Positions 9,599 to 27,047 of a DNA stretch of 64,000 nucleotides are shown piece after piece (positions within the stretch are counted from its first letter, which is position 1; each line of letters starts with the position of its first letter). Under the pieces are notes generated by a model. It did no database searches. It worked only from the letters and a program-made list of their open reading frames with translations, and had not been told where the DNA came from. This DNA is from an uncultured Acidobacteriota bacterium (GTDB taxonomy: Bacteria; Acidobacteriota; Thermoanaerobaculia; UBA5066). The stretch spans positions 80,904 through 144,903 of the forward strand of contig CAWDEX010000003.1 of the NCBI GenBank assembly GCA_963801475.1, given 5' to 3'. Position numbers and translations under genes: made by a program.

Positions 9599-10971
9599 GC
9601 GTCCTCGCGGAACGCGGGCCGGAGGTGCCCGTATTCCTGCGAGTTGGCCGGCGTGAGGCCTCCGGACGCCGCGGCGAAGGCCGCCACCCGGGCCCTCAGC
9701 TCGGGCTTGAGCCACGGCACACGCGGGTCCTCGTGCGTCATCCACCCCATCCACTCGGGCTCGATCCACTCTTCGAGCGAACCGGGCGTACCGTCGATCG
9801 GATCGACGTTCCCGTACGTCCCGCGCCTCTGCGGCGTCGGCGTGTAGTAATAGGTGATCAGCTTCATCGTCGGGTTCACAGCCTTGAGACGCCGGATGAA
9901 GGCGAGTGTCTTTTCGGCCTCGGCCTCGGGGTCGTCGGGATCGCCGAACATGAAGGAGAACTCCGGAACGATGCCGTGCTCCCGGGCCCTCGCCGCAAAC
10001 GCAAGGGTCTGCTCCGTCGTCAGGTTCTTCGACATCCTCGCGAGGGTCGCGTCCGATCCCGACTCGGCGCCGAGGTAGACCATGGTGCAGCCGGAGCGGC
10101 GGATCTTCTCCCATGTCCGGTCGGAGAAGCGGAGCATGACGTCGATCCGGGCCTCGCACCACCAGCGAAGCTCCAGCGGAGTCATCCGTTCGGCGATCTC
10201 GCCGGCGTGCGCCTCGGACTGGAAGAAGTTGTTGTCGTAGAAGTGGAGACCGTCCATCCCGTGCCCCCGGACGAGGCCGGAGAGGTTCTCGACGGTCCGG
10301 GCGGGGTTCTCGAATTTCTCCCGGCTTCCGTAGACGGAGATCACGCCGCAGAAGTTGCACGTGTAAGGGCAGCCGATCGAGGCCTGGTAGACGCCGCTCC
10401 GCCGGCCGAGAAAGGTCGGTTCGAGATAGTCATCCACGTCGATTCGCCCGTACGGAGGCGGCGGCAGCTCGTCGGGACCGACCCACGGCCGTTCGGCGTT
10501 CAGCCGGACGGACCCGGCCTCCTTCCAGCCGAGACCGGCGACCGACGAGGGTTCGCGACGGCCTTCGAGAACTTCGAGAAGCTCGAGGAACGTCCGCTCA
10601 CCCTGGCCGCGCACGATCCAGTCGACGTACGGTGCGGCCAGGACCGTCCCCGGATAGAGGGAAGGAAAGTACCCGCCCCAGACGACGGGAACCCGTGGAA
10701 ACCTCTTCTTCAGCCTCTTCGTCAGCGGGACGGCGGCGGCGAGCTGCGGGCCGGGCATGACCGTGAACGCCAGCAGGCGAACGCGGTCGCCTGCCGCTTC
10801 GGCCGCTTCGGCCCGCTGGACGACGGCGTTGAAGACGTCCGGGTCCGGCCGGTTTCCGTCCACGATGTCCCACGTTTCACCCTCGGGAAGCGCGGCCCCG
10901 AGCGCCATGACGGAGAGAGGGAACCGCCGATGGAGGGGCCTCGTCGCCCGGGGGTTGATCAGGAGGATCAT
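9595..10971 (-). CDS. B12-binding radical SAM protein, paralog C
   Basis: 'MILLINPRATRPL...' N-terminus typical of B12-rSAM enzymes, and 'SIGCPYTCNFCGV' CxxxCxxC. 458 aa. Confidence 0.75.
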   Translation of the reverse strand: MILLINPRATRPLHRRFPLSVMALGAALPEGETWDIVDGNRPDPDVFNAVVQRAEAAEAAGDRVRLLAFTVMPGPQLAAAVPLTKRLKKRFPRVPVVWGGYFPSLYPGTVLAAPYVDWIVRGQGERTFLELLEVLEGRREPSSVAGLGWKEAGSVRLNAERPWVGPDELPPPPYGRIDVDDYLEPTFLGRRSGVYQASIGCPYTCNFCGVISVYGSREKFENPARTVENLSGLVRGHGMDGLHFYDNNFFQSEAHAGEIAERMTPLELRWWCEARIDVMLRFSDRTWEKIRRSGCTMVYLGAESGSDATLARMSKNLTTEQTLAFAARAREHGIVPEFSFMFGDPDDPEAEAEKTLAFIRRLKAVNPTMKLITYYYTPTPQRRGTYGNVDPIDGTPGSLEEWIEPEWMGWMTHEDPRVPWLKPELRARVAAFAAASGGLTPANSQEYGHLRPAFREDA

Positions 10972-24312: not shown

Positions 24313-25449
24313 TCAGAGAGCGAGCAGGCCGGCCCGCCAGCGCGAGATGCCGGCGGCGGCGGCGAGGCGCTCGGGGCTCGAGGGCCGCTCCACGAGGAGG
24401 GCGCGCGCCGCGGCCGTCAGGACGGCCCGAGACGCGAGGACGCCGGGGTCGAGGCCGAGCGCCCGGGCCTTCCGGTCGCGCTGCTTCTTCATCTGATCGA
24501 CGGTGCGCTCGAGCTCGGGATCGGCCTCGGCCGCCTCGCCGCGCCGCGGGGCCGGCCAGGCCGACGGCGGCAGCCGGCGCGTCGCGTCGAGAACGCGCCG
24601 GAGCTCGGTGGCCAGGGCGCCCGGGAGCGGGCGAGGGCCGGGAAAGAGCCTCAGGAGGTCGCCCTCGCCCGCGGCGGCGAGCCGGGCGGCCGGGAGGAGG
24701 CGCTCGTTCGTCATCACGCGGAAGGGGGGGAGGTCGAGGTCCCGCGCCCGGGCCTCGCGGACCTCCCAGAGAGCGCGGACGAAGGCGCGCTCTTTCGCCG
24801 AGAGCGCGTTCGTCCCCTTGAGCCGCCAGTCGTTCTCCGTGTCCGCCGCGCGCTCGCGGGGAAACGGGGCGGCCGCGAGACGGGCGCATTCCTCCTCGTG
24901 CCAGGCGAGCCGCCCGAGGGCCGCGAGGTCGCTCTCGAGCGACGCCACGAGCGCGGGGAGGTACGCCACGTCGGCCGCGGCATAGGCGACCATGCCGGGC
25001 GGCAGCGGCCGCGCGCTCCAGTCGGCCCGCTGATGCACCTTGTCGAGCGCCACCCCGAGCCGCTTCGACAGGAGGGCCGAGAGGCCGATTTCCCGTTCGC
25101 CGAGGAGCTGCGCCGCGATCATCGTGTCGAAGAGCGTGCCGGCGCGGAAGGCATGGTCGCGATAGAGGAGGCGGAGGTCGTAGTCGGCGCCGTGCATCAG
25201 GAGACGCCGCGGCACGAGGCGTTCGAGGAGCGGTGCCAGCGCGACCGGGCCGAGCGGGTCGACGAGGAAGACCTCTCCCGCCACCTCGAGCTGCACGAGG
25301 CAGATCTTCTCGAAGTAGTGGTGGAACGAGTCGGCCTCGGTGTCGAGCGAGACCGGAGCCGGAGCGAGCGCGTCCAGCCGGGCCAGGAGCGCCGGGAGAG
25401 AGGCGGGATCGTCCACGAGGGCGGCGGGGCGCGGGGCGTCGGAGGTCAC
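24313..25449 (-). CDS. rnd: ribonuclease D (DEDDy 3'-5' exonuclease + HRDC)
   Basis: 'VSLDTEADSFHHYFEKICLVQL', 'HGADYDLRLL' and 'YAAADVAYL' exonuclease motifs, and an HRDC-like C-terminus. The start is uncertain; the GTG near 25449 is preferred over the track ATG at 25563. Confidence 0.7.
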   Translation of the reverse strand: MTSDAPRPAALVDDPASLPALLARLDALAPAPVSLDTEADSFHHYFEKICLVQLEVAGEVFLVDPLGPVALAPLLERLVPRRLLMHGADYDLRLLYRDHAFRAGTLFDTMIAAQLLGEREIGLSALLSKRLGVALDKVHQRADWSARPLPPGMVAYAAADVAYLPALVASLESDLAALGRLAWHEEECARLAAAPFPRERAADTENDWRLKGTNALSAKERAFVRALWEVREARARDLDLPPFRVMTNERLLPAARLAAAGEGDLLRLFPGPRPLPGALATELRRVLDATRRLPPSAWPAPRRGEAAEADPELERTVDQMKKQRDRKARALGLDPGVLASRAVLTAAARALLVERPSSPERLAAAAGISRWRAGLLAL

Positions 25450-25511
25450 GGGAACGGGGAGGGTAGCACCCCGCAAAACCTTCCACAGCGGGACCTTCGT
25501 TCCTTTTCTCC

Positions 25512-25540
25512 TTGACGGGGGGACCCTGGGGTTCGATACT
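25512..25540 (+). promoter_or_regulatory. sigma70-like promoter of the dcw operon (TTGACG-N17-GATACT)
   Basis: TTGACG at 25512-25517 and GATACT at 25535-25540 with a 17-nt spacer, about 92 nt upstream of the mraZ ATG. Seen directly in the sequence. Confidence 0.5.
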
Positions 25541-25545
25541 CGCCG

Positions 25546-25580
25546 GTGGAAAAAAGTGGTCATCTGTGGTGCATCGTGGG
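25546..25580 (+). promoter_or_regulatory. putative MraZ operator: four direct GTGG(N) repeats at exact 10-bp spacing
   Basis: gGTGGaaaaaaGTGGtcatctGTGGtgcatcGTGGGctg, with repeat starts at about 25546, 25556, 25566 and 25576. It sits between the predicted -10 and mraZ. MraZ operators are described as TGGGN-type direct repeats with 10-bp periodicity. Confidence 0.55.
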
Positions 25581-25631
25581 CTGCGGAGGCTCCCGAGGGC
25601 CCACAGGGGCTCCCGTTTTCCGGGAAGGAAC

Positions 25632-26078
25632 ATGGAGCGGCTTCGAGGCAGCGCGGAGACGACGGTGGACGAGAAGGGCCGGTTCAAGGTGCCGGCCATC
25701 TTCCGCGAGCCGATCGAGGAAACGTGGGGGCCAGATTTCTTCCTGACCTCGATCACCGGAGGCGACGTGCTCGTCTATCCGATGCCGGTCTGGAACGTCT
25801 TCGAGGAGAAGCTCGCGGCGCTGCCGCCGGTCCACCGGGCGCGCTCGAAGTTCCTGGAGCGGTTCAACACCTTCGGCCAGCCCGTGAAGATGGACCCGCA
25901 GGGGCGCCTCCTCATTCCGTCGCTCCTCAGGGACGTGGCCGGCATCTCCGGCGAGGCGCTGGTACTCGGGCAGACGGACCACCTGAAGCTGGTGAACAAG
26001 ACGAAGCACCTGAAGGCCCTCCGGGCCGAGAAGCTGACGGATGAGGACTACGACGCGCTGTCGCGCCACCTGCTCTGA
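25632..26078 (+). CDS. mraZ: transcriptional regulator MraZ
   Basis: It starts at the internal ATG (MERLRG...). It has two MraZ/SpoVT-AbrB-like repeats with 'DEKGRFKVP' and 'DPQGRLLIP' (the DxxxR motif occurs twice). The track ORF 25512-26078 has a spurious leader. Confidence 0.85.
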   Translation: MERLRGSAETTVDEKGRFKVPAIFREPIEETWGPDFFLTSITGGDVLVYPMPVWNVFEEKLAALPPVHRARSKFLERFNTFGQPVKMDPQGRLLIPSLLRDVAGISGEALVLGQTDHLKLVNKTKHLKALRAEKLTDEDYDALSRHLL

Positions 26079-26093
26079 GGACGGAGGAGACCG

Positions 26094-27047
26094 GTGCACG
26101 TTCCGGTCCTGCTCGGCGAGGTCGTCGCGCTCCTCCGGCCGGAGCGGGGCGGGACCTTCGTCGACGCGACGCTCGGCCTCGGCGGGCACGCCGAGGCGCT
26201 TCTCGAGGCGTCGCCCGGCGTCCGCGTGGTCGGAATCGACGCGGACCCCGAGGCGCTCCTCCTGGCGCGCGAACGCCTGGCCCGATTCGGAAGCCGTCTC
26301 GTTCCCGTCGAAGGGCGCTACGAGGAGCTCACGGCCCACCTCGACCGCCTCGGGATCGCCGAGGTGGACGGCGTCCTGGCCGATCTCGGGGTGTCTTCGC
26401 TTCAGCTCGACCGCGCGGAGCGGGGGTTCTCGTTCATGAAGGACGGGCCGCTCGACATGCGGATGTCGAAGGCGGGACCGTCCGCGGCGGATCTCGTCAA
26501 CAGGCTGCCTCGGGAGGAACTCTCGCGGATCTTCCGCGAGTACGGGGAGGAGCGAATGGCCGGACGCATCGCCCGGGAGATCGCGGAGGCGCGCGCGGCG
26601 GCACCGGTGTCCACCACGGGGGAGCTTCGGCGCCTCGTGTTGAAGGCCACGGGGCCGAAGCGGGAGCGCCACAAGGACCCGGCGACGCGCGTCTTCCAGG
26701 CTCTCCGGATCGCGACGAACCGCGAGCTGATCGACCTCGAACGATTTCTCGACGACGCCATCGCGCGGCTCGCGCTCGGCGCTCGCGTCGCGGTGCTCTC
26801 GTACCATTCGCTCGAGGACCGGATCGTCAAGCGCGTCTTCGCGCGCCACACGGCCGGCTGTACCTGCCCGCCGTCCTTTCCCGTCTGCGTCTGCCCCCGG
26901 CGCCGGGTGATGGCGCTCGTCACGAAGAAGCCGATCCGCCCCTCGCTCCCCGAGCTGGCCCAGAACCCCCGCGCCCGCTCCGCGCGCCTGAGGGTCCTGG
27001 AGCACGCCCTCGAGGAGAACGGGCGGCCGGGTCCGCCGCCGCGGTGA
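26094..27047 (+). CDS. rsmH: 16S rRNA (cytosine1402-N4)-methyltransferase RsmH (MraW)
   Basis: 'VPVLLGEVV', 'FVDATLGLGGHA' and 'LADLGVSSLQLD' match the canonical RsmH motifs. GTG start. Confidence 0.9.
   Translation: MHVPVLLGEVVALLRPERGGTFVDATLGLGGHAEALLEASPGVRVVGIDADPEALLLARERLARFGSRLVPVEGRYEELTAHLDRLGIAEVDGVLADLGVSSLQLDRAERGFSFMKDGPLDMRMSKAGPSAADLVNRLPREELSRIFREYGEERMAGRIAREIAEARAAAPVSTTGELRRLVLKATGPKRERHKDPATRVFQALRIATNRELIDLERFLDDAIARLALGARVAVLSYHSLEDRIVKRVFARHTAGCTCPPSFPVCVCPRRRVMALVTKKPIRPSLPELAQNPRARSARLRVLEHALEENGRPGPPPR

Follow-up and report, generated by a model that had tools for sequence, protein, structure and literature searches.

The locus analyzed here raises the question of whether four short GTGG repeats, located between a predicted promoter and the mraZ gene, constitute an operator through which MraZ could regulate its own synthesis. 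A candidate MraZ autoregulatory operator had been proposed at this site in a preliminary description of the DNA, and the proposal was followed up by computational analysis of the window (i.e., the whole stretch of 64,000 nucleotides, with a G+C content of 71%), of related genomes and of metagenomes. The MraZ homologues and the genome matches place the organism in the Acidobacteriota, class Thermoanaerobaculia, and all of its relatives are represented by metagenome-assembled genomes.

Promoter, phased repeats and gene context

A consensus scan of positions 25000-26200 detected a single sigma-70-like site, TTGACG-N17-GATACT, which agrees with the consensus at 9 of 12 positions (0.0 such sites in 50 shuffles). 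This predicted dcw (mra) promoter is composed of a -35 hexamer, TTGACG, at 25512-25517 and a -10 hexamer, GATACT, 17 nt further on at 25535-25540, both on the forward strand. The promoter had already been noted in the preliminary description, where it was called near-consensus; in numbers, the -35 hexamer matches the consensus at 5 of 6 positions and the -10 hexamer at 4 of 6. A T-rich block at 25490-25511 abuts the -35 element on its upstream side and holds GGGACCTTCGTTCC and, after it, TTTTCTCC, a weak terminator-like hairpin for which 0.6 sites are expected by chance. The block may represent an UP-like element or mark where an upstream transcript ends, and the relatives keep GGGATTTC(N)C ahead of TTGAC.

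Downstream of the -10 element, four candidate MraZ boxes with the sequence GTGG can be read on the forward strand, at 25546-25549 (box 1, in or beside which the transcription start is predicted), 25556-25559 (box 2), 25566-25569 (box 3) and 25576-25579 (box 4, which reads GTGGG). Their period is exactly 10 bp across all four boxes, as originally described, and the gap between the -10 element and box 1 consists of five bases, CGCCG, rather than the six given in the preliminary description. Spacer 1 (25550-25555, forward strand) reads AAAAAA, which is unusual in itself because the window has such a high G+C content. A weak fifth phased position, GAGG, is located at 25586-25589 on the same strand and may represent a degenerate extra box. 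The 10-bp phase persists weakly past box 4, with GAGG at 25586, AGGG at 25596 and GGGG at 25606.

The end of the -10 element and the mraZ ATG (25632) are 91 nt apart, and a leader beginning at the predicted start, 6-8 nt past the -10 element, would measure approximately 84-86 nt; both values replace the 92-nt leader reported earlier. A purine-rich ribosome-binding region, GGGAAGGA, can be read at 25622-25629 on the forward strand, upstream of the ATG, and a purine tract resembling GGGAAGGA or GGGGAAGA is also present in the relatives.

The four-box GTGG-N6 pattern occurs only once in the 64-kb window when both strands are searched, and it occurred in none of 100 dinucleotide-preserving shuffles of the window. 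Given the frequency of GTGG in the window (503 in 128 kb), chance alone would produce 3e-5 four-box runs. The operator is also the sole occurrence of the three-box pattern in the window. The two-box pattern GTGG-N6-GTGG has seven matches compared with 1.25 expected; three of the seven are the operator itself, and the remaining ones, at 10860, 21893, 45311 and 54754, are close to the chance level in number.

The gene that follows, mraZ (25632-26078, forward strand), encodes a protein of 148 amino acids that matches Pfam PF02381 in two stretches (E 2.5e-14), and a protein search retrieved 305 homologues, called MraZ by their sources. Two DXXXR motifs, D13-E-K15-G-R17 and D88-P-Q-G-R92, were identified. 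Residues D13, K15, R17, D88 and R92 align with their counterparts in M. pneumoniae MraZ (1n0e), which was the sole match in a search of solved-structure sequences (E 9e-4), and they are invariant in an alignment that includes E. coli MraZ. The second gene, rsmH (mraW; 26094-27047, forward strand; Pfam Methyltransf_5, E 1.3e-108), is presumed to belong to the same operon. It is followed by a small frame of the size of FtsL, lacking a Pfam match, and by FtsI, with transpeptidase, PBP dimer and PASTA domains; MurE-, MurD- and MurC-like ligases, FtsW, FtsA and FtsZ are encoded farther along on the same strand. The cluster is thus a canonical dcw cluster, with the promoter and the boxes at its head.

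On the other side of the promoter, an RNase D-like gene with 3'-5' exonuclease and HRDC domains (24313-25449, minus strand) is divergently oriented and begins with GTG. The sequence GGTGCTACCCT (25447-25470, minus strand) resembles a TGn-extended -10 element ending 10 nt ahead of this start codon, which is not preceded by a Shine-Dalgarno sequence; in 31 of the 35 relatives described below, TACCCT is located 5-10 nt ahead of the RNase D-like start codon. These observations suggest that the mRNA of this gene may be leaderless and transcribed back-to-back with the dcw promoter.

Conservation of the boxes and their association with mraZ

From species-representative genomes, 41 loci with relatives of the MraZ of the window were taken. 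The conservation set consisted of 35 Thermoanaerobaculia loci for which upstream DNA was available and whose MraZ is 72-97% identical to that of the window; these relatives share ancestry, and the counts given below are not independent events. TTGAC-N17/18-GATACT is present in 35/35 relatives, and box 1 begins 4-5 nt past the -10 element in all of them. Boxes 1 and 2 are both GTGG in 35/35 relatives, box 3 in 31/35 (TGGG, ATGG or GCGG in the others) and box 4 in 34/35 (TTGG in one), and the fifth phased position is NNGG in 34/35.

When identity to the window was calculated (34-35 relatives), a value of 98.7% was obtained for the 16 box positions and 95% for spacer 1, which is nearly invariant (AAAWAA, i.e., AAAAAA or AAATAA), whereas spacers 2 and 3 gave only 48-52%. 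Identity was 46% for the 26 nt past box 4, and within mraZ it was 61% at third codon positions and 86.5% at first and second codon positions. Conservation of the boxes therefore exceeds that of the sites that determine the amino acids of MraZ, and the boxes are under stronger constraint than these coding sites. Spacers 2 and 3 have drifted to saturation, and since the spacers and the third codon positions are saturated, there has been ample time for the boxes to change. Comparison of the leader in related genomes had been put forward in the preliminary description as a check that could refute the operator, and the repeats come through it strongly. Conservation extends beyond these close relatives: five more distant acidobacterial loci, with MraZ 47-54% identical, each contain three to four phased GTGG boxes, which in three of the five are clearly located past a TTGAC...TA...T promoter.

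The association between the boxes and mraZ was also approached from the opposite direction, by a scan of metagenomes for the pattern GTGGAAAWAAGTGG-N6-GTGG-N6-GTGG that was blind to genes and yielded at least 120 loci. Among the matches listed, 103 had at least 300 nt of downstream DNA, and a MraZ homologue was found directly downstream on the same strand in 81 of these, and mraZ can thus be predicted well from the four-box pattern. Where at least 500 nt of downstream DNA was available, the MraZ-linked loci comprised, again among the matches listed, approximately 35 close and 43 distant relatives of the MraZ of the window. The distant relatives (hmmsearch E values from 1e-5 to 1e-47) include low-G+C lineages, and in the distant lineages hexamers resembling TTGAC and TATAGT typically end 4-8 nt ahead of box 1. 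The four-box form is thus widespread in diverse environmental bacteria, beyond this genome and the mycoplasmas.

The 22 listed loci without mraZ mostly contain long 10-bp tandem arrays of five to nine copies with near-identical spacers, and are mostly another kind of sequence than the operator. Arrays of the form (GTGGAAnnAA), repeated five to nine times, were observed in L093 (3891-3950) and in L044, L052, L070, L090, L094, L097, L134 and L151, and no mraZ was found within approximately 750 nt downstream of the arrays in any of these contigs. The array-bearing contigs partly share sample sets, and the array of L093, the one contig read, sits in repeat-rich DNA. Such arrays are the main false positives of four-box searching.

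Proposed function and alternative explanations

All of the sequence-level features that define an MraZ operator are present at this site. Taking together the position of mraZ at the head of the dcw cluster, the conservation of the boxes and the link from motif to gene, the candidate operator of the preliminary description is supported at the level of sequence, and we consider it highly probable (approximately 0.88) that the element is the operator by which MraZ represses its own synthesis at the dcw promoter. According to the mechanism proposed, RNA polymerase containing the housekeeping sigma factor would use TTGACG-N17-GATACT and would start transcription approximately 6-8 nt past the -10 element, which, judging from this distance, would fall in or beside the first GTGG. 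An MraZ oligomer would then bind in such a manner that the beta-sheet "cradle" of one subunit (K15, R17 and R92) would occupy the major groove at each GTGG, with the four boxes lying 10 bp apart on one face of the helix and spanning about +1 to +34. If the boxes were occupied cooperatively, MraZ would overlap the footprint of the polymerase and block initiation or promoter escape, and the predicted outcome is negative autoregulation of mraZ together with rsmH, ftsL, ftsI and perhaps further genes of the cluster. We infer the start site, the binding and its stoichiometry from what is known of the MraZ family. That the regulation is negative is an assumption, made by analogy with E. coli, B. subtilis and M. 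genitalium, because MraZ of M. gallisepticum has been reported as an activator (as cited within PMC12957436).

Two conserved features, the near-invariant A6 spacer and the GG at the fifth phased position, are left unexplained by a simple model of four GTGG boxes. The invariance of A6 may possibly reflect an extended box 2 consensus, AAAGTG, an A-tract bend or the initially transcribed sequence. A more elaborate view, which seems rather improbable to us, is that the two features mark an extended or bent assembly of at least five MraZ subunits on DNA, with wrapping assisted by the A-tract, or alternatively that the same 40 nt also encode an RNA hairpin formed by the 5' end and a U-tract.

The latter idea leads to an explanation of the repeats at the RNA level, in which a hairpin of the leader, with the G-rich boxes paired to C-rich segments farther downstream, would stabilize the mRNA or control translation, or in which an RNA-binding protein would recognize the GUGG repeats. 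In most of the 35 leaders, the minimum-free-energy fold pairs the 5' end with a U-tract ahead of the ribosome-binding site, which is consistent with this explanation, as are the z-scores of the leaders, mostly from -1 to -4 (35 leaders, mononucleotide shuffles), and an inverted repeat, GTGGGC (25576-25581) and GCCCAC (25599-25604), that is kept in the nearest relatives. However, the fold of the leader of the window is not significant (z = -1.14, with 24 of 200 shuffles folding equally well), and RNAalifold applied to 32 leaders yielded no consensus structure (4 pairs, -1.35 kcal/mol). Moreover, the boxes are invariant without covariation with pairing partners, the distant lineages have the same four boxes and the A-rich spacer with no U-tract, and the strict 10-nt period is that of the DNA helical repeat. 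No Rfam match at E <= 1 was found in 25300-25800 on either strand. The RNA-level explanation is consequently regarded as unlikely to account for the boxes, and an RNA fold might exist alongside the operator, at a secondary level. In the window itself, the predicted leader (25546-25631) folds as a long imperfect hairpin in which GGAAAA (25548-25553) pairs with UUUUCC (25616-25621), just ahead of the ribosome-binding site, and which takes in the GTGGGC/GCCCAC inverted repeat.

It is very unlikely that the G-rich repeats downstream of this promoter modulate dcw expression through a G-quadruplex, formed either in the DNA or in the RNA of the leader. A parallel G-quadruplex formed by a G-rich region downstream of PmraZ has been described in S. 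aureus, and conserved motifs have been claimed in other bacteria (PMC11796246). The coding strand analyzed here does contain four or more GG runs, but the canonical motif (four G-runs, each of 3 or more, joined by loops of up to 7 nt) is absent from 25400-25700, the boxes hold GG only and are connected by loops of 8 nt, and the operator reaches a G4Hunter score of just 0.63, the usual threshold being 1.2. In addition, the whole GTGG, including the T, is kept at the exact 10-bp phase, which fits recognition by a protein on one face of the helix and not G-tetrads.

Such a protein could in principle be different from MraZ and control the dcw promoter by binding to the boxes; in some bacteria, regulators other than MraZ are known to act on dcw promoters. 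The motif, its spacing, number, orientation and position all agree with experimentally defined MraZ sites (E. coli, B. subtilis and Mycoplasma), and the pattern and mraZ occur together in the large majority of the listed metagenome loci (81/103), the remainder being mostly simple tandem arrays, both of which make another binding protein highly improbable. Finally, although long (GTGGAAnnAA)n arrays without mraZ exist in metagenomes, chance and functionless tandem duplication are excluded by the shuffles and the expected frequency given above, by the differences of the spacers from one another and by the conservation of the boxes while spacers 2 and 3 diverged, and their probability is practically negligible.

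Comparison with known MraZ operators

An MraZ operator has been defined as a set of GTG(G/T) boxes located 6 nt apart beside the transcription start (PMC12957436). The layout found here, with its predicted start, agrees with this published definition, and to this extent the operator architecture recognized in the preliminary description stands. The boxes had been designated there as TGGGN-type, which is wording used for the MraZ repeats of E. coli and is less apt here than GTGG.

The closest counterpart is the operator of M. genitalium, which consists of four boxes, three of them AAAGTGT-N3 and the last AAAGTGG, with the start site inside box 1; the A-rich bases 5' of the boxes are part of the consensus AAAGTGT (PMC12957436). 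In the cryo-EM complex, four MraZ subunits are bound to the four boxes, Lys13, Arg15 and Arg86 contact TG(T/G), and Asp11 and Asp82 hold these residues in place, while box-by-box mutation caused a stepwise loss of binding and repression (PMC12957436). The site described here likewise has four direct boxes with a 10-bp period immediately after the -10 element and a start, here predicted, in or beside box 1; its box 2 reads AAAGTGG, identical to the extended consensus of M. genitalium, and its MraZ retains both Asp residues along with the Lys/Arg/Arg contacts. On the other hand, the boxes are GTGG here and GTGT (three of them) in M. genitalium, only the first spacer is A-rich here and the others are variable, and box 4 is followed by a weak GG at a fifth phased position. 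Furthermore, the genome here has a G+C content of 71%, and the dcw cluster is complete, whereas that of M. genitalium is reduced to four genes. The four-box form has been presented as special to some mycoplasmas (PMC12957436). Its common occurrence beyond them makes the four-subunit cryo-EM model slightly broader in relevance.

Repression of the mra promoter of B. subtilis requires three GTGG[A/T]G repeats separated by 4-nt spacers, and the sole triple repeat of the genome is located at mraZ (White et al., bioRxiv 10.1101/2022.02.09.479790). The GTGG core, the 10-bp period and the location at the mra promoter are shared with the present site, where three- and four-box runs are similarly unique in the window. 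The two sites differ in the number of boxes (four here and three in B. subtilis) and in the two positions past GTGG, which are not conserved here.

The Pmra region of E. coli K-12 MG1655, which was read directly, has the sequence TTGACA-N18-TAAACT followed, after 7 nt, by GTGGG-aaatt-GTGGG-gcaaa-GTGGG. In both organisms, a promoter is followed by boxes on the coding strand with a 10-bp period, upstream of mraZ-rsmH-ftsL-ftsI. Unlike the present site, E. coli has three exact GTGGG boxes, and its fourth phased position is just GGGG. The gap between the -10 element and box 1 is 5 nt here and 7 nt in E. coli. The leader of E. coli is also much shorter than the present one, in which the last box is located farther from the start codon, with 52 nt between the end of box 4 and the ATG here, compared with 19 nt after box 3 in E. 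coli.

Few members of the Acidobacteriota have been cultured, and our literature search found no experimental studies of division control in this phylum; the present locus would provide a clean and phylogenetically well-supported sequence example of MraZ autoregulation in its class Thermoanaerobaculia. It goes slightly past the textbook description in three respects, i.e., the four-box form outside the mycoplasmas, the near-invariant A6 and the fifth phased GG, all of which leave the general picture unchanged. Compared with the operators already known, the site is ordinary in architecture and exceptional just in its clarity; it is of a kind already described, and the mechanism proposed for it is the known one.
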